Positions 361 to 53,312 of a stretch of 64,000 nt of DNA are shown one piece after another; within the stretch, counting starts at the first letter, position 1; every line of letters starts with the position of its first letter. The notes beneath the pieces are model-generated. The model did not search any database and had not been told where the DNA came from. It saw nothing but the letters and a program-made list of their open reading frames with translations. The translations under genes were made by a program, and so were the position numbers. This DNA is from an uncultured Candidatus Saccharibacteria bacterium (GTDB taxonomy: Bacteria; Patescibacteriota; Minisyncoccia; Phycocordibacterales; PALSA-1337). The DNA is taken from assembly GCA_964406895.1 (NCBI GenBank), contig CAYOTK010000003.1:9529-73528 (forward strand), in the 5' to 3' direction.

Positions 361-398
361 CGCCGCTTGGCTTGTCCGAGCGGCTGGTTTTTTTATGA
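361..398 (+). terminator. rho-independent terminator candidate for the island-1 ORF
   Basis: ccgcttgg-cttgt-ccgagcgg hairpin (8 bp including one G-U pair) followed by ctggttttttt. Confidence 0.4.
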
Positions 399-429
399 GG
401 TCGGACCTTCAAAAGGTCCGACCTCAAAA
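397..429. repeat. palindromic repeat element copy 1 (GGTCGGACC-ttcaaaa-GGTCCGACC)
   Basis: Perfect 9-bp stem with a 7-nt loop. A near-identical copy, with the same GA/AAAA flanks, occurs at 50702-50735. Confidence 0.55.
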
Positions 430-2223: not shown

Positions 2224-3934
2224 TCAGAAGATTAGAACTCGTATAGTACTTATCTGTATAATAGTTGTGGCATTGTGTATTGCCACAGCTTTGTATTTCA
2301 CGCAAATAGTGAATGGTGATAGTTATGCCAAAAAGGCTGATAAACAATATACGAAACCAAATATTTCTATTCTCGATAGAGGCACAATATATTTCAGGAA
2401 TAAAGACGGATCGAAAGTATCAGCCGCATCAATAATGAGTGGATATTCGATATATATGAATCCAGGATTGATCCAAAATCCTGCCGAAACATATGATGCC
2501 TTGTCACAATATATAACAATTAACAAAGATGATTTCTTGAAAAAAGCTAGCAGGAAGAATGATCCATATGAAGAAATAATTCACAAAGCTAGCAGTGATA
2601 AAGCAATATCGATTGGTGAGCTGTCGCTCAAAGGTATAGGTATTTCTAGGGAAAATTGGCGAGTATATTCAGGGGATTCTTTGGCTTCACATGTACTAGG
2701 TATTATAGGTGAGAGCAAGCTTGGATTCATGGAAGGGAAGTATGGCATAGAAAAATCTTTTGATGGTGTTCTTCATAGGAAACAATCAGGTTCAGGCAAG
2801 AATACATTCGCGGAACTTATGACAGATCTTAAGGACAGTGTTTTCGGTGGAGTTAATAGTGGTACGGAGGGAGATGTTGTGACTTCAATAGAACCCGCTG
2901 TGCAAAGTTATCTCGAGAAAGTTTTGAAACAGAAAAGCAATGAATGGCGACCTGATGAAATCGGTGGCATCATTATTGATCCTTCTACAGGAGAAATCAT
3001 AGCTATGGCTGCATTGCCTGATTTCAATCCAAATGATCTAAGTGGTCTTAAGGATTTGAAAGTTCTATCCAATCCGCTCGTAGAAAGAGTCTATGAAATG
3101 GGCTCGATAGTCAAACCGTTAACGGTAGCAATCGGTCTTGATAGTGGGACTATTGATAAGAAATTTACTTACAATGATACTGGGACATTAACACTGAGCG
3201 GAAAGAAAATAAGCAACTTCGACGGCAAGGCAAGAGGAGTTACGCCTCTTCAGCAGGTCTTGAGTCAGTCCTTGAATGTGGGATCAGCCACCATTGCTCT
3301 TAAGGTTGGTAAAGACATATTTACGAAATATATGACAAATTTCGGTTTGGGCAGTCGCTCAGGTATTGATTTGCCAAATGAAGCCACCGGACTTGTCAAT
3401 AACTTCAAAACAGGTCGTGATGTTGAAATTGCTACAGCAGCATATGGTCAGGGAATAGCGATTTCACCTATTTCTATGGTGAGAGCTTTGGCTATTTTAG
3501 CGAACGGTGGCAAACTTATCACTCCTCATGTTGTCAAAGAGATTGATTATAAGAATGGTAATACACACAGCACTTACGATCCTCAATTGGCAAAGAGTGT
3601 TATTTCTCCAGACACGGCCGAAGCGGTAACATCGATGTTGGTCACAGTCGTCGATACGGCACTGAAGCAGGGTACGATCAAAAGACAACATTATTCAGTG
3701 GCGGCCAAAACTGGCACCGCACAAATTCCCGATCATGTGAATGGTGGTTATTATTCTGACAGATATTTGCACTCATTTTTCGGATATTTCCCGGCATACA
3801 ATCCCAAATTTTTGATTTTCTTGTATCAGATTTACCCCAAGGGTGCGCAATACGCTTCTGAAACTTTGACTGAACCATTCGACGGATTGACCAAATATCT
3901 GATAGACTATTACAGCATCCCTCCTGATAGGTGA
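2207..3934 (+). CDS. ftsI: penicillin-binding protein 2 / FtsI transpeptidase
   Basis: 575 aa. N-terminal TM segment, SxxK-like GSIVKP motif, and KTGTA near the C-terminus (the KTG box). Confidence 0.85.
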   Translation: MAMNSNQKIRTRIVLICIIVVALCIATALYFTQIVNGDSYAKKADKQYTKPNISILDRGTIYFRNKDGSKVSAASIMSGYSIYMNPGLIQNPAETYDALSQYITINKDDFLKKASRKNDPYEEIIHKASSDKAISIGELSLKGIGISRENWRVYSGDSLASHVLGIIGESKLGFMEGKYGIEKSFDGVLHRKQSGSGKNTFAELMTDLKDSVFGGVNSGTEGDVVTSIEPAVQSYLEKVLKQKSNEWRPDEIGGIIIDPSTGEIIAMAALPDFNPNDLSGLKDLKVLSNPLVERVYEMGSIVKPLTVAIGLDSGTIDKKFTYNDTGTLTLSGKKISNFDGKARGVTPLQQVLSQSLNVGSATIALKVGKDIFTKYMTNFGLGSRSGIDLPNEATGLVNNFKTGRDVEIATAAYGQGIAISPISMVRALAILANGGKLITPHVVKEIDYKNGNTHSTYDPQLAKSVISPDTAEAVTSMLVTVVDTALKQGTIKRQHYSVAAKTGTAQIPDHVNGGYYSDRYLHSFFGYFPAYNPKFLIFLYQIYPKGAQYASETLTEPFDGLTKYLIDYYSIPPDR

Positions 3935-46950: not shown

Positions 46951-47850
46951 CTAAATCCCTTCTTTCTTCAGCTCCTCAATCAACCTCTGCGCCTCACGCG
47001 ACAACTTCCTTGGCATTTCAACCTTCGTGACTATAAGAAGATCCCCTCTCCTACCGTCTTCTGTCATCACACCTTTCTTTTTGATTCGAAGAATTTCATT
47101 ATGAGTCGTGCCTTGAGGAATTTTGAGCTCAATCTTGCCATCTATCGTTTCAAAATCGATTGTGCCTCCTGTGAGAGCGAGAGTTAATTTTACTGGAAGT
47201 TCCGTAATGAGATTGTAACCTTCTTTCCTGAAATGTGGATGTGGCGCAACCCAAACTCTGACTATGAGATCTCCGCGCCCACCTTCACCCTGCTCTCCTC
47301 TGCCACTAATTCGCAAACCTTGTCCATCTTCTATTCCTGGAGGAATCTTAATGGCCAAATTTTCTTTGCCACCTATAGAAATGTCTTTCTCAACACCAAA
47401 AACAGATTCCTTGAATGAAATATTTATATCTATAGTTATGTTCTTACCTTTTCTCGGTCTCTTGGTCCTACCTTGACCGAAAAAGTCGCTGAAAATATCT
47501 CCGAGGTCAAACTCTACACCCTGACCACCACCGAAATTCGAAAAATCAAAATGAAATCCTTGACCATTACCAGTATTGAAACCTTGGAAACCGTTGAAGC
47601 CCTGACCGAAACCGCCTTGATAGTTTGCTCCTCCTGCCCCCGCAGACCCAAACATGTCATATTGCTTACGTTTTTCATCATCAGAAAGGACAGAGTAAGC
47701 TTCGCTAGCTTCTTTGAATTTCTTCTCTGCCTCGGCGTTGCCCTTATTTTTGTCTGGATGAAATTCATGGGCAAGCTTACGAAATGCTTTCTTGATGTCA
47801 TCTTTCGATGCGTTTTTTTCTAGTCCTAGTGTTTTGTAATAATCTTTCAT
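46951..47850 (-). CDS. dnaJ: DnaJ-class chaperone without a zinc finger (type II/CbpA-like)
   Basis: J-domain with HPD, a G/F-rich region and a C-terminal substrate-binding domain. There are no CxxCxGxG repeats. Confidence 0.8.
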   Translation of the reverse strand: MKDYYKTLGLEKNASKDDIKKAFRKLAHEFHPDKNKGNAEAEKKFKEASEAYSVLSDDEKRKQYDMFGSAGAGGANYQGGFGQGFNGFQGFNTGNGQGFHFDFSNFGGGQGVEFDLGDIFSDFFGQGRTKRPRKGKNITIDINISFKESVFGVEKDISIGGKENLAIKIPPGIEDGQGLRISGRGEQGEGGRGDLIVRVWVAPHPHFRKEGYNLITELPVKLTLALTGGTIDFETIDGKIELKIPQGTTHNEILRIKKKGVMTEDGRRGDLLIVTKVEMPRKLSREAQRLIEELKKEGI

Positions 47851-47883
47851 GATTTTAATTTAATACAATTTTTACCTCTTCAC

Positions 47884-47908
47884 TGGCCGATCGATTTGAC
47901 CGGCCAGT
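47884..47908. promoter_or_regulatory. intergenic hairpin between dnaK and dnaJ (attenuator or processing-site candidate)
   Basis: ctggccg-atcgatttga-ccggccag. No T-run follows on the coding (minus) strand. Confidence 0.3.
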
Positions 47909-47924
47909 TCTGAGATAAAACTAA

Positions 47925-49847
47925 CTATTTCTTCTCCTTGAATTCAGCATCTTTTACATTTCCATCACCTCCATTACCACTATCAGTACTACCTCCATTA
48001 GCCGATGCGCCACTTTGATTATTGGTGTTTGGAGCTTGATTATTCTGATTCATATACTGACCAATCTTTTGAATCTCCGCCGACAACGCTTCTGTCGCTG
48101 TCTTCAATGTGTTGATATCTGGTGTTGCCATATCCTTCGCTGTCTTAAGCGCTGTGACCTTCTCCTCAATGTTTTTCTTGAGATCAGCAGGTACTTTGTC
48201 GCCCGCCTCCTTCAAGGCCTTCTCTGAGGTGTATACGAGTTGCTCAGCAATATTCTTGGCCTCGACTATATCTCTCTTGGCCTTGTCATCGGCTTCATGG
48301 GTAGCAGCCTCCTGTTTCATCTTCTCGACTTCGTCTTTCGATAGTCCTGAAGAAGCAGTGATCTTGATAGAATTGGCCTTTCCTGTTGCTTTGTCTTTTG
48401 CTGTCACACTCAATATACCGTTTGCATCGACATCGAATGATACTTCGATCTGAGGCATGCCTCTTGGTGCTGGTGGAATACCGTCTAGTATAAATCTGCC
48501 TAGAGACTTATTGTCCGCGGACATTGCGCGTTCACCTTGAGTAATGTGTATCTCTACTGAAGTTTGATTGTCGGATGCTGTAGAGAATATTTGAGAGCGT
48601 TGGGTAGGAACAGTTGTATTTTTCTCAATGAGCTTCGTCGCAACTCCACCCATTGTTTCTATACCGAGAGAAAGTGGTATAACGTCGAGAAGTAATACGT
48701 CTTTGACGTCTCCCGCCAATATACCTCCTTGTATCGCCGCGCCCACCGCAACCACCTCGTCGGGATTCACTCCCATGTGAGGATCTCTACCGAAAAACTG
48801 TTTGACTGCATTTTGCATAGCTGGCATACGTGTTTGACCACCAACTAGGATGACTTCATTAAGTTCATTTACCTTGAATGGGGACGCACCCATGGCGCGC
48901 TTTGTGATCTCAATTGCTCGGTCTATGAATTCCTGAGTAATTTCTTCGAGTTTAGCTCTAGTCATAGTTATGAGTAGATGCTTTGGTCCATCTGATCCAG
49001 AAGTGATGAATGGTATGTTGATTTCCGTTTGAACTGCAGTAGAAAGTTCGATCTTTGCTTTCTCTGCTGCTTCATCTAGTCTCTGTAAAGCAAGAGGATC
49101 TTTGCGCAAATCTATGCCATTTTCTTTCTGGAATTGATCTGCTATCCAGTGCAATATCTTCTGGTCTATATCACGACCACCGAGGTGAGCGTCTCCGTCT
49201 GTGGACTTCACTTCTATGACATCGTCCGCTACTTCTAGGATGGAAATGTCGAATGTTCCACCACCGAAGTCGAAGACTGCAATCTTCTCATTTTTCTTCT
49301 TGTTGAAACCATAGGCGAGAGCTGCCGCTGTTGGCTCATTGATAATGCGCTTCACTTCTAGGCCTGCGATCTTACCTGCATCGCGAGTTGCTTGTCTCTG
49401 TGAGTCATTGAAGTATGCCGGAACAGTGATAACTGCCTCGGTTATCTTCTCGCCCAAACGTGCCTCCGCGTCATTCTTGAGCTTGGTAAGTATCATGGCT
49501 GAGATTTCTTCTGGTCTATACCATTTGCCTGACATGTTCACTTCTACTCCACCGTTTGCGGCTTTGCGAGTTTCGAATGGTACAGACTTTGCGTCTTTCT
49601 GGACTCCTTCTTCATCGAAAGTGTGTCCGATGAATCTCTTGATCTGGAATATTGTATTCTTCGGATTCGTAACCGCTTGTCTGCGCGCCAAAAGGCCGAC
49701 GATCCTCTCGCCTGTTTTTGACTGTGCAACTATAGAAGGTGTTGTTCGTGCACCTTCACTGTTCTCTAGGACTCTCGGAGTACCCGCTTCCATCACTGCG
49801 ACGGCGCTGTTGGTAGTTCCAAGGTCGATACCTATGATTTTGGACAT
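47925..49847 (-). CDS. dnaK: molecular chaperone DnaK (Hsp70)
   Basis: [15 protein letters not shown]...; 640 aa. Confidence 0.95.
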
Positions 49848-49878
49848 GGTTGTTAATGATTAAGTTTTTAAATTTATA

Positions 49879-49914
49879 TTGACAACTAATAGTTATTGAC
49901 TTACAATTGTGTTG
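49879..49914 (+). promoter_or_regulatory. consensus sigma70-type promoter
   Basis: TTGACA-N17-TACAAT. Confidence 0.5.
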
Positions 49915-49935
49915 AACCCTAAACCAACTGATCAC

Positions 49936-50073
49936 ATGATTGCCACGATATTGGCCGATCTCCTTTCAAATCCCTTCGTATATCTGGAAGCGTTCATAGT
50001 TGGGGCGCTGATCTGGACGCTCATGGGCTTCCCCGAATTTTGGACGCGCAAGTTCTGGGATCGCAAATCATAG
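49936..50073 (+). CDS. 45-aa hydrophobic peptide in a high-GC island
   Basis: MIATILADLLSNPFVYLEAFIVGALIWTLMGFPEFWTRKFWDRKS. A promoter lies upstream and a terminator downstream. Below the ORF-track cutoff. Confidence 0.35.
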   Translation: MIATILADLLSNPFVYLEAFIVGALIWTLMGFPEFWTRKFWDRKS

Positions 50074-50097
50074 CGCGTCTTGTCCCATTTCACTCGT

Positions 50098-50133
50098 CCG
50101 ACTGGCGTCATGCTGGTCGGGCGGCTTTTTTTT
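50098..50133 (+). terminator. rho-independent terminator
   Basis: ccgactggc-gtcat-gctggtcgg followed by gcggcttttttttt. Confidence 0.45.
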
Positions 50134-50217
50134 ACAACGAACTTACTAATCCACAAAGTTCTATCTCGCAAAGTTGATCCTTGAATTTATCTTATTTTTC
50201 CTAATTATTTCCAACAT

Positions 50218-50253
50218 TGACAAATAGGGTCAAATAATGCTATAATGCTTGCA
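50218..50253 (+). promoter_or_regulatory. consensus sigma70-type promoter
   Basis: TTGACA-N18-TATAAT. Confidence 0.5.
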
Positions 50254-50351
50254 GTTTTAACATCGCTCTTTGACCAAAATGTAGACTGCGGAAGTGAGGG
50301 TAACGAGGCAACGACGTCTCGCATCTTCACAAACCGCGGTTTACCAAACTT

Positions 50352-50603
50352 ATGGAAACTTTACTGTCGATTTTGTCTCTGAGTTTCATTCTCTTTGTGG
50401 CTTTATTCGGCTCTGTCACCGGATTTTGTCGCTGTGCGAAGTGCAAGAGTTGGAATGTCAGGTACCGAGTTGGTCGGAGTTTCGATAACCACCATCCCGA
50501 TCACTACTGGAGGAGTGAATATTTCTTGTGCAAAAAATGTGGGACGGAAACTCAGATCAGCCATAGTCTGGAAAGACAAAGCGACTCCCCATTTTTTGAT
50601 TGA
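50352..50603 (+). CDS. 83-aa protein with an N-terminal TM and a 4-Cys zinc-ribbon-like region
   Basis: CRCAKC...CKKC spacing, in a high-GC island. A terminator lies at 50638-50665. Confidence 0.4.
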   Translation: METLLSILSLSFILFVALFGSVTGFCRCAKCKSWNVRYRVGRSFDNHHPDHYWRSEYFLCKKCGTETQISHSLERQSDSPFFD

Positions 50604-50637
50604 GATCGCCCACTTTCAGGGCAGAATGTAACTCCGA

Positions 50638-50665
50638 AGCCGTGCGCAAGTGCGGCTTTTGTTTT
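50638..50665 (+). terminator. rho-independent terminator
   Basis: agccgtgc-gcaa-gtgcggct followed by tttgtttt. Confidence 0.4.
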
Positions 50666-50701
50666 ACCTTATTTGTCATTTCAATGAACTTACCAATCCA
50701 C

Positions 50702-50735
50702 GAGGTCGGACCTCTAAAAGGTCCGACCTAAAAAA
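50702..50735. repeat. palindromic repeat element copy 2 (GGTCGGACC-tctaaaa-GGTCCGACC)
   Basis: Near-identical to the copy at 397-429. It lies just 3' of an island ORF terminator, as copy 1 does. Confidence 0.55.
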
Positions 50736-50799
50736 TTAGAAAGCAGGCGCTCTTATTTTTATATTAGTTAAAAGATAAAGTGAAGAATAAGGAGAAACT

Positions 50800-50943
50800 A
50801 TGTCACTTGTATCAAACCAAGAAATGTCAGTTGTATTTGAAATACATGTAGGACAAGGTAATGAGAAACGATTGACTTTGTTTTGTGCGGTTGAACATGG
50901 ATCTGCCTTGAGCGATATGACTGGCTCTATGGAAAGAATATGA
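50800..50943 (+). CDS. 47-aa ORF with a strong Shine-Dalgarno, in an AT-rich segment
   Basis: AAGGAG 7 nt before the ATG. It overlaps the next ORF by ATGA. Confidence 0.3.
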   Translation: MSLVSNQEMSVVFEIHVGQGNEKRLTLFCAVEHGSALSDMTGSMERI

Positions 50944-51131
50944 CCCTTGAGTACGCCGTCGATCTCATAGACTTCGAATCTGACACGCACCAAAGAGCCG
51001 TTGTTATCTGTAACAACTCTGGTGAATATTCCCTTCTGGTTTATATTAGAAATACTGAGCATGTTCTCATTTTACTAGAATGTGGGCGGAGGTCAAGTCA
51101 ATTTATACAAAATCCCCGACCGATCGGTTGA
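50940..51131 (+). CDS. 63-aa ORF translationally coupled to the previous ORF
   Basis: ATGA overlap. It ends inside a GC-rich hairpin. Confidence 0.3.
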   Translation: MTLEYAVDLIDFESDTHQRAVVICNNSGEYSLLVYIRNTEHVLILLECGRRSSQFIQNPRPIG

Positions 51132-51147
51132 ACCGAAGGGCCGGGGG
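51100..51147 (-). terminator. GC-rich hairpin terminator for the minus-strand two-gene operon
   Basis: ccccgacc-gatcggttgaaccgaag-ggccgggg stem, with a T-rich tract 3' on the minus strand. Confidence 0.4.
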
Positions 51148-51193
51148 TGACAGAATTACCGTATGGATCTCACCTTGTCAACAGCATCGAACT

Positions 51194-51586
51194 TTACCTC
51201 AAAGACGCTAGAAGACCACTCACACTTGACGAGGTAACCGAAAGGGTGAATTCATCGTCAGTCGAAATTACTTCAAGTGTCCACAGTGGTGATTGAAGCT
51301 TGATGGTTCCGCCTCCACCAACACCATGCACGCCAGAGACCGTTATTTCTTGCGCGTGCACAGAGGGAAGACCAAGTTCGGGCAACTTGCTCACCAACTG
51401 ACCTAGGGGTGTACAGCCAAGCTCGGTCAGAGCACTGTCAATGTTGTGTCCGTTCGGCATCAGATTTGGCGTCTCGTTCGCAATCGCTACTTGTTCGAAT
51501 AACTGCAGGAACTCTGCCATTTGGACAGCTTGAGAGTTCCCACCATCCAACAATTTCAACAGGTTGATATTTGTTTGCATAACCAT
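51194..51586 (-). CDS. hypothetical 130-aa protein with a Gly-rich loop (GVHGVGGGGT), in a high-GC island
   Basis: Second gene of a two-gene minus-strand operon. No family recognised. Confidence 0.45.
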   Translation of the reverse strand: MVMQTNINLLKLLDGGNSQAVQMAEFLQLFEQVAIANETPNLMPNGHNIDSALTELGCTPLGQLVSKLPELGLPSVHAQEITVSGVHGVGGGGTIKLQSPLWTLEVISTDDEFTLSVTSSSVSGLLASLR

Positions 51587-51592
51587 ACTCCT

Positions 51593-51904
51593 TCACTTAT
51601 TCCTCCGGGGTGAGCCGGGGAACTTAGTTGTTAGCAACACTTCCAATTTCTCCGCGCCGTGCGGGGAGTTGAGTATTGCTGTGAGTGCACCAAGAGAATC
51701 CTTTCCGTGGTCCCGAATCGCGCATGCATACCAGCGTCCAGCTTTCGCTTTCTTCTGGCTTCCGGTGTATTTAAACACCAGTGCATATGCTTTTGTGGGA
51801 CTTGAAGCAGATTCAACAAGGTTGAGCAATTTAGGACAAGTCCAAATTGCCTTGGAGCGTGTCAGATAACCAATGATTTCGACAGCGTCGTCCTCAGAGT
51901 ACAT
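51593..51904 (-). CDS. hypothetical 103-aa basic protein in a high-GC island
   Basis: First gene of the operon. A TTGTAA-N17-TG-TATAAT promoter and an AGGAA SD lie upstream on the minus strand (~51925-51985). Confidence 0.45.
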   Translation of the reverse strand: MYSEDDAVEIIGYLTRSKAIWTCPKLLNLVESASSPTKAYALVFKYTGSQKKAKAGRWYACAIRDHGKDSLGALTAILNSPHGAEKLEVLLTTKFPGSPRRNK

Positions 51905-52056
51905 GACGTGTTCCTTTCCTTTTCAAAGTGCCATTCAGAATGATGTTCCAAATACAGCTGTATCTGGCATTCTTACTGACAGTAATTATAACACGAGATT
52001 AAATATATTACAAGTCATAAAACATTCGAATATACCATCTTATTTTTTACGCTTAA

Positions 52057-52205
52057 GAAGCACCTGCATATACTTTTTGCACTCACCGCAAAATCGCCAT
52101 TCCAAATTGCAACCGTATTCGCTTCCACGGCTTCAGCGAATACGGGCAATTTGTTCATGGCTCAATCGCATTGCGGTGAGTGCAAAAAGTATATGCAGGT
52201 GCTTC
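52057..52205. repeat. 35-bp perfect inverted repeat with nested inner inverted repeats, forming a ~150-nt extended hairpin (MITE-like or structured-RNA element)
   Basis: Left arm 52057-52091 (gaagcacctgcatatactttttgcactcaccgcaa) is the exact reverse complement of the right arm 52171-52205. Inner pairs are caaattgc/gcaatttg and ccgtattcgc/gcgaatacgg around a 13-nt loop. Confidence 0.7.
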
Positions 52206-52232
52206 TCTACCCAATGTAAAAAATAGATGTAA

Positions 52233-52829
52233 TTAACTCCTAAACTCCCCAACCTTAACTCTCGGCGCCTTGAGTAACTTACCATTCAATGAGTAACCTT
52301 TTTGCAATACCTGTATAACAACTTGATCTTGTTTTTTGTCATCAACAGCAACGTGTTCAATCGCCTCATCTCTGTTGTGATCGAATTTTTCGCCTATAGG
52401 ATTGACTTCCTTCCAGCCATTTTCTCCGAGAACTTTCTTGAGTTGATTGTAGATATATTCGACACCTACACGCCAATTTTTGTCGACTTTCTCCCATGAT
52501 TCCTTGTTACCAATAGCCATGTCGAAACTTTCTAGGACAGGAATAAGGTCGCCAACAAGTCCTTCATTGGCATATTTCATGAATTCAGTGCGGTCAGCTT
52601 CATCACGCTTGCGAGCATTGATGAGATCTGCCTTGGCTCTTTGCCAACCGGTCAAATACTCTAGTTTCTCTGTTTCGGCTTTCTTAAGTTTTTCTTTGAG
52701 TGTCTTGATGATCTCTTTTGCGCTTTCTTCCGCCACGACAGAATCATCTACATTATCCGAATCAGTGTCGGATGAAATGTCAGCATCAATTTCAGGAACA
52801 ATATCTTTGTCGTCTAAATTATTGGCCAT
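52233..52829 (-). CDS. grpE: nucleotide exchange factor GrpE
   Basis: Coiled-coil N-terminus and a GrpE C-terminal domain (LIPVLESFDMA...). Confidence 0.9.
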   Translation of the reverse strand: MANNLDDKDIVPEIDADISSDTDSDNVDDSVVAEESAKEIIKTLKEKLKKAETEKLEYLTGWQRAKADLINARKRDEADRTEFMKYANEGLVGDLIPVLESFDMAIGNKESWEKVDKNWRVGVEYIYNQLKKVLGENGWKEVNPIGEKFDHNRDEAIEHVAVDDKKQDQVVIQVLQKGYSLNGKLLKAPRVKVGEFRS

Positions 52830-52901
52830 AGATAAATAATATCAAAAGTGTTGGAATTGGCAATTGCCAACAAATGAGATGTGTCGATATTAATAATGAC
52901 T

Positions 52902-53312
52902 TTAACGTTTGGACCACTGAGGACTCTTTCTGGCTTTCTTGAGACCGAATTTTCTGCGCTCTTTAGCACGAGGATCACGTTTCAAGAAACCGAGTTTCTT
53001 CAACTTACCACGAAGTTCTTTGTCGTATTCAATGAGAGCTCTAGCTATACCGTGTCTTGTTGCCTCTGATTGTGCAGATACGCCACCACCAACAACTTTG
53101 ACTACGACGTGAAATTTCTCTGAGATTTTGGAATTCTGTATAGGTTCCATAACTGTAGCTTGCATTTCTTTGACTGGGAAATATCCTGCTAAGTCTTTTT
53201 CGTTTATTTCATAACCAGCTTTTGATCCAGGGAATATGCGAACTCTCGCAACAGCAGTTTTGCGTCTTCCTACGGCCTCTATGTATTTGTGTGTTGATTT
53301 GGTTGGTGTCAT
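52902..53312 (-). CDS. rpsI: 30S ribosomal protein uS9
   Basis: GRRKTAVARV...GGGVSAQSEATRHGIARAL...KRDPRAKERRK. Confidence 0.9.
   Translation of the reverse strand: MTPTKSTHKYIEAVGRRKTAVARVRIFPGSKAGYEINEKDLAGYFPVKEMQATVMEPIQNSKISEKFHVVVKVVGGGVSAQSEATRHGIARALIEYDKELRGKLKKLGFLKRDPRAKERRKFGLKKARKSPQWSKR

Follow-up and report, generated by a model that had tools for sequence, protein, structure and literature searches.

The interval between grpE and dnaK in a Paceibacteria chromosome: anatomy, history and a slot for small genes

An additional regulatory gene inside a dnaK operon has precedent, namely hrcA and, in actinobacteria, hspR, and the closest described arrangement is the Gram-positive type of operon, hrcA-grpE-dnaK-dnaJ with a CIRCE operator. 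For small genes that differ between strains at one position, the closest described counterparts are replacement-type flexible genomic islets, in which non-homologous alleles occupy one locus between conserved flanks and are exchanged by homologous recombination, integron cassettes, and type I toxin-antitoxin loci (hok/sok, tisB/istR-1, fst, txpA/ratA). The CPR, or Patescibacteria, are ultra-small bacteria whose tiny genomes are rich in unannotated small genes, and to our knowledge almost nothing is known about their stress-gene regulation and strain variation.

The chaperone locus and its conserved gene p108

In the 64-kb stretch of DNA analysed here (the window), the ORFs of grpE (52233-52829), dnaK (47925-49847) and dnaJ (46951-47850) lie on the minus strand, and products identical to those of grpE and dnaK match PF01025 and PF00012, respectively. 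The order grpE, dnaK, dnaJ on a single strand is that of a grpE-dnaK-dnaJ operon and is shared with the hrcA/CIRCE type. However, the direct adjacency of grpE and dnaK that marks the latter is replaced here by a spacer of 2385 bp (49848-52232), grpE comes after rpsI with no hrcA beside it, and the CIRCE operator (TTAGCACTC-N9-GAGTGCTAA) had no match in the whole 64-kb window with up to three mismatches allowed. In further contrast to the hrcA/CIRCE operon, a 108-aa gene (p108) stands between grpE and dnaK throughout the lineage, grpE and p108 have promoter-like sites of their own, and antisense units part p108 from dnaK. The same arrangement was found in independent contigs (L204, L200 and L202) at 99.3-100% identity, which ruled out an assembly artefact.

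The relatives of the locus are Patescibacteria, and in 63 of them the gap between grpE and dnaK ranges from 91 to 8964 bp (median 911 bp). Large gaps are thus the norm in the host lineage, contrary to the preliminary description of this DNA, which took the two genes to be normally adjacent. The spacer studied here is longer than the lineage median. Nothing in it matched a family in Pfam, NCBIfam, PHROGs, PADLOC or Rfam, as the preliminary description had anticipated in recognizing no known family: all seven spacer ORFs drew zero PADLOC-DB families at E ≤ 1, and Rfam covariance models run over 49000-53000 returned only two chance-level matches (E 0.67-0.9), with the leader hairpin and the foldback element described below unmatched.

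Promoter-like sites are dense in the region (11, versus 4.2 ± 2.3 in shuffles); the promoters, terminators and leaderless starts reported for the locus are predictions from consensus matches. A promoter scan placed a TG-extended site (TTGCCA-16-TATTAT, 52863->52836, minus strand) ahead of grpE, and because 6 nt separate its −10 box from the ATG, the grpE mRNA is probably leaderless. p108 (50736-51062, minus strand) likewise has a predicted promoter (TTGACC-16-TAAAAT, 51096->51069, minus strand) 6 nt before its ATG. Since grpE and p108 would each be transcribed from their own promoter, the heat-shock operon is probably not functionally split.

p108 is present on the same strand in 60 of the 63 grpE-dnaK gaps, its 155 homologues are all annotated as hypothetical, and it evolves under purifying selection (dN/dS 0.08-0.24). 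Two plus-strand ORFs opposite it (50800-50943 and 50940-51131) had been described as an ATGA-coupled pair in an AT-rich stretch; both are interrupted by stop codons in sister species and are the antisense shadow of the real minus-strand gene. Public gene callers put p108 on the wrong strand. The protein is predicted, in a model of low confidence (pLDDT 67.6), to have three beta strands forming an N-terminal unit, followed by a disordered tail with a conserved ...SQPTRAPSF-type motif at its end; the model gave no informative fold match. Synteny and conservation indicate that p108 is ancestral to the whole lineage and a member of a grpE-p108-dnaK cluster. It may be an accessory of the DnaK system, a link that is purely positional.

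A slot for exchangeable small-gene units beside dnaK

Between p108 and dnaK, comparison of the sequences reveals a fixed slot, antisense to the operon and back-to-back with dnaK, that holds apparently autonomous small-gene units. Two such units are present in tandem, in agreement with the preliminary description of two monocistronic plus-strand genes with consensus promoters and terminators, which encode a 45-aa hydrophobic peptide and an 83-aa membrane protein with four cysteines. The main unit, which we call the socket (50217-50704, plus strand), is divergent from dnaK and contains a sigma-70-like promoter (50217-50246, 12/12), a 64-nt leader hairpin (50281-50344), p83 (50352-50603; 83 aa, with a transmembrane segment and a CxxC...CxxC four-Cys ribbon), an intrinsic terminator (50636-50659), a flanking inverted repeat (50218-50237/50659-50678) and a 3' motif (50686-50704). 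The second, short-leader unit (49879-50157, plus strand), an indel of ∼335 bp, has a sigma-70-like promoter (49879-49907, 11/12), the gene for the transmembrane peptide p45 (49936-50073), an intrinsic terminator (50094-50124) and a 3' motif (50139-50157) paralogous to the 3' flank of the socket.

The leader hairpin (dG −35, z −3) stops 1-8 nt short of the AUG, in a leader that lacks a Shine-Dalgarno sequence, and its paired positions are invariant relative to the sister species represented by L093, although dS is ∼1.1. A covariance model found it between grpE and dnaK, in the same orientation, in L044 (2e-7), L075 (7e-6) and L071 (7e-5); 97.6% of cells were paired, versus 35-44% in slid controls, with six compensatory pairs, in an alignment that was fitted to the model and represents essentially two clades. 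Five G-U pairs point to the p83-sense strand as the functional one. Inverted repeats flank the unit in three lineages. Promoter, hairpin, terminator and repeats thus appear to make up a conserved shell. Because the hairpin is missing from several closer relatives (L010, L011, L040 and L097), the shell has a patchy distribution, and horizontal spread is a possible alternative to an ancestral origin.

What the shell encloses is variable. The p83 gene is conserved in the sister species (dN/dS 0.25 for the L093 orthologue), and L010, L011 and L040 have zinc-ribbon relatives of p83 at the equivalent place, in the same orientation. The sister strain L007 has an unrelated 86-aa ORF, p86, in place of the coding sequence (50345-50610), between flanks that are 90-97% identical, and p86 also replaces p83 in L201 and L205. 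More distant relatives carry still other ORFs in the socket, all mutually unrelated, and the cargo as a whole ranges from 45 to ∼105 aa and includes a soluble 73-aa protein in L075. The p45 unit is missing from L007, the indel being bounded by ATTGACAA repeats; in other contigs p45 occurs with either p83 or p86, so that three haplotypes (p45+p83, p45+p86 and p86 alone) attest independent assortment. As judged from these alignments, strains and lineages have exchanged the socket ORF at breakpoints that lie within the conserved flanks, and the p45 unit has been gained or lost between promoter repeats. Such exchange could proceed by homologous recombination without a dedicated recombinase.

The arrangement resembles flexible genomic islets in that the unrelated p83 and p86 share an identical position with breakpoints in conserved flanks and assort independently of the p45 indel. 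It differs in its tiny scale, a single ORF of ∼250 bp, and in what the conserved flanks consist of: they are the promoter, structured leader and terminator of the gene itself. A regulatory shell therefore persists around changing proteins, and it does so even in distant relatives. With integron cassettes it shares a fixed platform, the exchange of unrelated ORFs, and tandem units with similar 3' ends. Unlike cassettes, however, the slot units have their own promoters, and the main unit its own leader, and the breakpoints fall in homologous flanks; there is no integrase among the spacer ORFs, none of which has a Pfam match, and no attC, the shared 3' motif (GAACTTACYAATCCACRAG) not being a hairpin-forming attC. 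An integrase does occur in other strains (L002-4), where it lies upstream of grpE.

The units also invite comparison with type I toxin-antitoxin loci. In this reading p45, p83/p86 and their counterparts would be membrane-damaging peptides kept untranslated by a structured leader and countered by an antisense RNA, which could arise from p108 read-through or from a minus-strand promoter in the p83 promoter region. The likeness lies in small hydrophobic peptides, monocistronic organization with strong promoters and intrinsic terminators, structured 5' untranslated regions and antisense overlap. The 45-aa p45 has a single helix and a basic/aromatic tail (maximum KD19 1.87), the long conserved 5' untranslated region ends at an AUG lacking a Shine-Dalgarno sequence, the units run antisense to transcription of the cluster, and a promoter-like site on the minus strand (50233->50204, 10/12) would yield an RNA antisense to the entire p45 unit. 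Furthermore, this gene cluster has taken up a genuine type II toxin (HigB-like) in L007, which shows that modules of this sort can be accommodated here. However, the units matched no toxin family and no Rfam antitoxin RNA, no discrete antisense RNA gene is conserved, and the only candidate for an antitoxin RNA is that predicted promoter-like site. p45 fits the size limit of ∼60 aa for a small hydrophobic toxin peptide; p83 and p86 have 83-86 aa. The cargo is mixed in size and type, with zinc-ribbon proteins and the soluble L075 protein, and so does not look like one class of toxin. The units also sit at a fixed chromosomal position beside dnaK, and p83 is under purifying selection as an ordinary orthologue. 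We therefore consider a type I-like function of the slot units unlikely. The preferred reading of an exchangeable socket leaves room for other roles: the cargo proteins, mostly small membrane proteins, may be strain-specific envelope or conflict factors under diversifying selection, and the leader hairpin may govern translation or processing of an mRNA that lacks a Shine-Dalgarno sequence, in a neighbourhood of genes that look leaderless. RNase III and YchF, a translation factor for leaderless mRNA, have been reported as retained in CPR (PMC12641178).

At the 3' end of the socket, between the convergent p108 and p83, lies the recurring palindrome of the preliminary description (AGGTCGGACC-N7-GGTCCGACCT, 50703-50729; hairpin dG −21.8, z −4.6), for which we found one other copy in the 64 kb (398-424; 0 copies expected). 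As a 27-nt GC-rich palindrome at gene 3' ends in more than one copy it is REP-like, but it differs from REP elements in its low number, just two across the 64 kb, and in the lack of any visible RAYT-type transposase.

The p103-p130 module and the foldback element

On the grpE side of p108 are two further elements. The first (51099-52043, minus strand, ∼945 bp) comprises genes for p103 (51593-51904, 103 aa) and p130 (51194-51586, start probably at 51580, 130 aa), with a TG-extended promoter (52013->51985, minus strand, 10/12) and, as terminator, a GC hairpin with a U-rich tail (51107-51148), much as first described. Each gene has a strong Shine-Dalgarno sequence. Their coding GC content (49%, versus 39% in the window) is only moderately unusual, falling in the top 3.3% of 945-bp windows, and dnaK itself has 46% GC. 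The block is missing in the sister species L093-96 and L097: their homology to the window skips from position 52044 to 51098, and the foldback abuts the p108 promoter. Alignment thus identifies p103-p130 as a self-contained module that was inserted recently between foldback and p108 promoter and is confined to the window species.

The two genes are co-directional, 7-13 nt apart and under their own promoter, which is the layout of type II toxin-antitoxin pairs, and they might act together as a conflict module, be it a type II toxin-antitoxin system, an abortive-infection system or an effector-immunity pair, in which a helical p103 serves as regulator, antitoxin or adaptor for a variable partner effector. 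Consistent with this, the genes are tightly linked (a 13-nt gap, with a Shine-Dalgarno sequence overlapping the p103 stop), the module brings its own signals and was apparently acquired recently, p103 is confidently modelled as all-alpha (pLDDT 82.5), and p103 homologues are either fused to or followed by unrelated partners of ∼100-330 aa; conflict systems typically combine a conserved module with a hypervariable partner. On the other hand, neither protein matched PADLOC, Pfam, NCBIfam or PHROGs, and neither was found in BFVD, viral contigs or phage and plasmid collections. The p103 family is small (19 representatives among 1.84 billion proteins), and p130 is an orphan without homologues outside the window population. 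The p103 model, a structure prediction that the preliminary description had proposed, gave no informative fold match, the PDB contained no sequence match, and neither sequence nor fold places the pair in a known toxin or antitoxin family. A conflict function is accordingly doubtful at present, and the resemblance of the spacer genes to toxin-antitoxin or small-protein defence modules suggested earlier found no positive evidence in PADLOC, Pfam, PHROGs, NCBIfam or Rfam.

The second element, a foldback of ∼195 nt (52035-52230), directly follows the grpE stop codon. Its arms (52056-52091 and 52171-52206) form a perfect inverted repeat, which had been noted before but is 36 rather than 35 bp long, around a near-palindromic core of 79 nt (52092-52170), and the whole folds as a single hairpin of ∼190 nt (dG −115.5, z −16). 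The L093 homologue (dG −97, z −12) is 92% identical, versus 82% for the flanks. The core is inverted in L093-96 relative to the window, L002-5 and L097. These comparisons show the foldback to be orthologous in sister species, with arms that co-evolve and a core that has flipped at least once. Gene conversion alone can hold the arms of an inverted repeat identical, without function.

In its long perfect inverted repeats around a short core, found in both orientations between species, the foldback resembles MITEs, foldback transposons and invertons, and it could be such a mobile or switchable DNA element. Its conservation above the flanks, the p103-p130 insertion directly adjoining it, and assemblies that break inside it (L001, L008 and L097) also fit that interpretation. 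However, contig breaks are expected at any inverted repeat longer than the assembler k-mer. The foldback is single-copy in the 64 kb, a metagenome scan gave only chance 17-mer matches, none with both arms, and no copy was found in relatives beyond the orthologous site, a position shared by three lineages. Unlike MITEs it lacks a target-site duplication (the flanking bases read TTA versus CTA), and unlike invertons it has no promoter-like site inside the core, no adjacent invertase (the Pfam search found no recombinase among the spacer ORFs) and no heterogeneity within populations, all contigs of each sharing one core orientation. We hold a mobile or switchable element to be improbable, somewhat more so than a conflict role for p103-p130. 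An element acting at the RNA level, as a terminator, an RNase III site or an insulator between the independently promoted grpE and p108, would be the preferred alternative.

A probably layered interval and its meaning for Paceibacteria

Nearly all features of the preliminary description are thus present in the sequence at the coordinates it gave, and its interpretation was only partly right. Extra strain- or species-specific DNA is real; by alignment, the recent parts of the spacer are p103-p130 (∼945 bp) and the p45 unit (∼335 bp) only. It is very improbable that toxin-antitoxin or small-protein defence modules arrived recently as one composite insertion of 2.4 kb and thereby split a once contiguous grpE-dnaK-dnaJ operon, for all the above-median length of the spacer and its orphan small genes with their own signals, because p108 is nearly universal in the relatives, foldback and p83 are orthologous in sister species, the socket shell recurs in distant relatives, no defence or toxin-antitoxin family is matched, and only ∼1.3 kb is recent and arrived in at least two separate events; the homologous spacer content revealed by synteny already contradicts it. 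The spacer is instead, in our judgment quite probably, a layered, recombination-prone interval of a Paceibacteria (Patescibacteria/CPR) chromosome. Its anatomy and history are well supported; the functions proposed above are inferred.

Tentatively, Paceibacteria may keep a dedicated expression socket beside dnaK whose cargo is freely replaced, a recombinase-independent cassette system for small, mostly membrane proteins in which the hairpin might be processed (e.g., by RNase III) to give a leaderless mRNA; together with p108 as an undescribed lineage-wide DnaK partner, this would turn the chaperone locus of CPR into a hub of envelope or conflict factors that differ from strain to strain. p108, an unannotated conserved family inside a chaperone locus, is a concrete candidate for a lineage-specific DnaK co-factor or regulator. 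The conservation of a regulatory RNA and promoter shell around a protein that is replaced offers a natural and directly testable example of small-gene turnover by recombination, and the covariance model of the leader hairpin could be used to survey all CPR genomes. Even if the locus proves ordinary, the finding corrects its annotation and shows large grpE-dnaK gaps to be the norm of the lineage.

The spacer and its lineage-wide gene p108

In the window, grpE (52233-52829), dnaK (47925-49847) and dnaJ (46951-47850) all lie on the minus strand, with rpsI as the upstream neighbour of grpE, and a spacer of 2385 bp separates grpE from dnaK. Because independent contigs from other samples carry the same arrangement at 99-100% identity, an assembly artefact is ruled out. 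The preliminary description took grpE and dnaK to be normally adjacent; in 63 relatives, however, the gap between them measures 91-8964 bp (median 911 bp, and >2 kb in nine), so that in this lineage a gap is the norm and the presumed adjacency does not hold. Among one-genome-per-species contigs, every grpE relative found belongs to the Patescibacteria (Paceibacterota, Parcubacteria or Taylorbacteria-type MAGs), with the closest at ~70% identity.

A 108-aa ORF, p108 (50736-51062, minus strand), has matches in 60 of the 63 (tblastn or jackhmmer), invariably on the grpE/dnaK strand between both genes and at a median distance of 166 bp from dnaK, and its dN/dS is 0.08-0.24. A profile search returned 155 homologues, every one annotated as hypothetical and from Patescibacteria, with a Pfam domain in none; we found no description of p108 in the literature. 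Two coupled plus-strand ORFs of 47 and 63 aa, previously proposed for this region, are riddled with stop codons in the sister species, and their "strong SD" is no more than antisense coding sequence. Public gene callers were also mistaken, calling the antisense 47-aa ORF (window 50800-50943), and sometimes a 53-aa ORF too, in place of p108 in the sister strain L007 and in the related contigs L200, L204 and L205. One p108 copy is labelled "Zn finger protein HypA/HybF" by JGI, a label for which we found no support.

Promoter-like sites precede both p108 (51069-51096, TTGACC-16-TAAAAT) and grpE (52836-52863, TTGCCA-16-TATTAT), each with a -10 box ending exactly 6 nt upstream of the ATG, and both lack a Shine-Dalgarno sequence, unlike the foreign p103 and p130 genes, whose Shine-Dalgarno sequences are strong. 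The grpE and p108 genes look like separate transcription units, probably leaderless, and this layout points to leaderless translation of the organism's native genes.

Exchange of small genes beside dnaK

Two plus-strand units, p45 (49879-50157) and p83 (50217-50704), occupy the slot between p108 and dnaK, the p83 unit being what we call the socket; they stand back-to-back with dnaK and antisense to the cluster, and both have the promoter and terminator earlier ascribed to them, here predicted as sigma-70-like promoters (11/12 for p45, 12/12 for p83) and intrinsic terminators. In L007 (96-98% identical), the p83 coding sequence (50345-50610) is swapped exactly for an unrelated 86-aa two-helix membrane ORF (p86), with 90% identity kept in the promoter plus 105-nt leader and ~97% in the 3' UTR, terminator and palindrome. 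The entire p45 unit is missing from L007, the limits of the indel being two ATTGACAA -35 regions. Further contigs carry p45 with p83, p45 with p86, or p86 alone, which indicates within-population recombination with breakpoints in the flanks. The p83 orthologue in the sister species (L093) has 59% identity and a dN/dS of 0.25, and the relatives L010, L011 and L040 hold zinc-ribbon p83 relatives with a transmembrane segment in the same position and orientation; on this evidence, p83 is a genuine gene. At its 3' end, the p45 unit is paralogous to the 3' flank of the socket, and L010 has an equivalent tandem arrangement with duplicated terminators.

The exchanged ORF, or cargo, sits within a shell of promoter, leader hairpin and terminator. 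The leader hairpin (50281-50344) has 25-26 bp (dG -35, z -3), and none of its paired positions differs between the window and L093, though the adjacent gene has reached saturation at synonymous sites (dS ~1.1). Because it contains five G-U pairs, the functional RNA is assigned to the p83-sense strand. A covariance model built from this hairpin matched three further relatives, L044 (E 2e-7), L075 (7e-6) and L071 (7e-5), in each case between p108 and dnaK and on the strand opposite to the cluster. Among the five hairpin sequences, 97.6% of cells pair, as compared to 35-44% with partners slid, and compensatory changes are seen at six pairs, in an alignment that was fitted to the model and spans two main clades only. 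At all three loci a TTGACA-17-TA(T/C)AAT promoter lies beside dnaK, the AUG comes 1-8 nt past the hairpin without a Shine-Dalgarno sequence, and there is a terminator as well as a related 3' flank. The cargo ORFs are unrelated to one another, those of the three loci encoding an 83-aa protein with three helices (L044), a 73-aa soluble protein (L075) and a 51-aa membrane protein (L071). Inverted repeats of 18-30 nt that include the -35 region bracket the unit in three lineages. With filters off, the covariance model did not find the hairpin in the closer relatives L010, L011, L040 and L097, which have short-leader units in the slot instead, and the shell is therefore patchy. We found no description of the socket in the literature.

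Several unrelated cargo peptides share a similar aromatic-basic tail (p45, window 49936-50073, ...EFWTRKFWDRKS; L044 11626-11874, ...DDIFWDKFKRAKW; L071 14635-14787, ...MFFLWDLKK), which may serve as an interfacial membrane anchor or may have arisen by chance from composition. In the sister species, four independent assemblies (L093-L096) end at one base, position ~6866, ~540 bp past p108 and just upstream of the leader of the p83 orthologue, where the p45 unit sits in the window; strain heterogeneity or a repeat there would fit this. The palindrome does recur, as was first noticed: it is 27 nt long, of the form AGGTCGGACC-N7-GGTCCGACCT, and its sole other copy in the window (398-424) directly follows an intrinsic-terminator-like hairpin upstream of mraZ. 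Each copy is preceded by a T-run, read in the same relative orientation.

The p103-p130 block and the foldback

Of the 2.4-kb composite insertion originally envisaged, 52043-51099 and the p45 unit stand as recent; p108 is present in 60 of 63 relatives and the foldback, a hairpin element directly 3' of grpE, in the sister species. In L093-96, the p108 promoter lies within ~25 nt of the foldback, precisely where the window has 52043-51099 intercalated, and L097 likewise lacks the p103-p130 block, which is the one clean recent insertion. It carries its own promoter, p103, p130 (start probably at 51580) and a hairpin terminator; the minus-strand 103-aa and 130-aa pair, TG-extended promoter and GC hairpin were all present as described. 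A "p128" considered as a variant partner of p103 is merely an alternative start call for p130. Coding GC is 49%, versus 39% for the window. Homology searching found p130 only in same-population copies, and the family of p103 is small and unnamed, numbering just 19 representatives in a set of 1.84 billion proteins. Its model is all-alpha and confident (pLDDT 82.5); no informative fold or sequence match was found. Unrelated partners follow p103 homologues or are fused to them, a pattern that resembles conflict modules, on contigs too short to show a host or mobile element. No p103 relatives were found in viral contigs and no matches in phage or plasmid collections, and the whole spacer was unmatched against phages. 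A reading of p103-p130 as a toxin-antitoxin or defence module was supported by no membership test. Scans of all small ORFs against Pfam, PADLOC, PHROGs and NCBIfam gave nothing significant, in keeping with the initial failure to recognise a known family, and an Rfam search in E-value mode over 49000-53000 gave chance matches only.

The inverted repeat reported to abut the grpE stop is there and is perfect, at 36 bp rather than 35, and its arms make up the middle of a near-perfect hairpin of ~195 nt (52035-52230; dG -115.5 kcal/mol, z -16). Contigs of the sister species (L093-96, ~82% nucleotide identity) have it at the same place with 92% identity, and the contig end of L097 holds part of it. 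A ~10-nt stretch of the arms differs between species, yet is self-complementary in each, and the 79-80-nt core in L093-96 has the opposite orientation to that in the window, L002-5 and L097. The arms would be held identical by pairing-driven conversion, and the core would have been flipped via recombination between them. The foldback is less probably a switch or a mobile element; a single core orientation was assembled within each population, neither an internal promoter nor a target-site duplication was found, and there was no second copy in the window, the relatives or a metagenome scan, in which a 17-mer from the arm gave one-armed chance matches only. We read the foldback as a conserved hairpin separating two genes that each have a promoter of their own, and in the simplest case it would work at the RNA level, as a terminator, an RNase III site or an insulator; retention of RNase III has been reported for CPR (PMC12641178). 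A 47-aa ORF in the core was rejected as a gene, having three non-synonymous differences versus one synonymous difference from L093 and no ribosome-binding site. No description of the foldback was found in the literature.

Other junctions and comparison with known systems

The nearest species representatives have a 182-aa SAM-dependent methyltransferase (PF13649/PF00398; L010 2805-3353, L011 630-1178, L040 10539-11087) between grpE and p108, in the position of the foldback and p103-p130 in the window. At the dnaK-dnaJ junction, just 74 bp in the window (47851-47924), L007 has an inserted 57-aa ORF and 74-aa HigB/YafQ-like toxin (3437-3888; PF05015, E 5e-7); the chaperone cluster therefore takes small modules at several junctions. 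In other samples, upstream of grpE-p103-p130, a tyrosine integrase (PF00589, E 3e-27) and a DKNYY-family protein replace rpsI in L002 (1438-2732; also L003 and L004). Homology between L002 and the window starts within the last 21 nt of rpsI (junction at window 52922), and a second piece resembling the rpsI 3' end lies at L002 2663-2699 (KKARQTPQWSKR*); the arrangement suggests an integrative element that attaches at the 3' end of rpsI and is polymorphic within the population.

In its behaviour the interval is a small counterpart of replacement-type flexible islets, with homologous recombination in the flanks, except that here what is conserved in the flanks is the regulatory shell of the gene itself. 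Its outline recalls type I toxin-antitoxin loci, some of whose defining features it lacks and others of which it may or may not share. By the membership tests it is neither an integron nor a MITE array, and with no CIRCE operator in the 64-kb window it is not a CIRCE-regulated operon. The original observation is partly confirmed and its interpretation partly supported: the anatomy and history of the spacer are well supported, and the functions of its elements are inferred. What makes the locus interesting is p108, a member of the DnaK locus that is lineage-wide yet undescribed, together with a conserved socket whose cargo is exchangeable and a flipped foldback.
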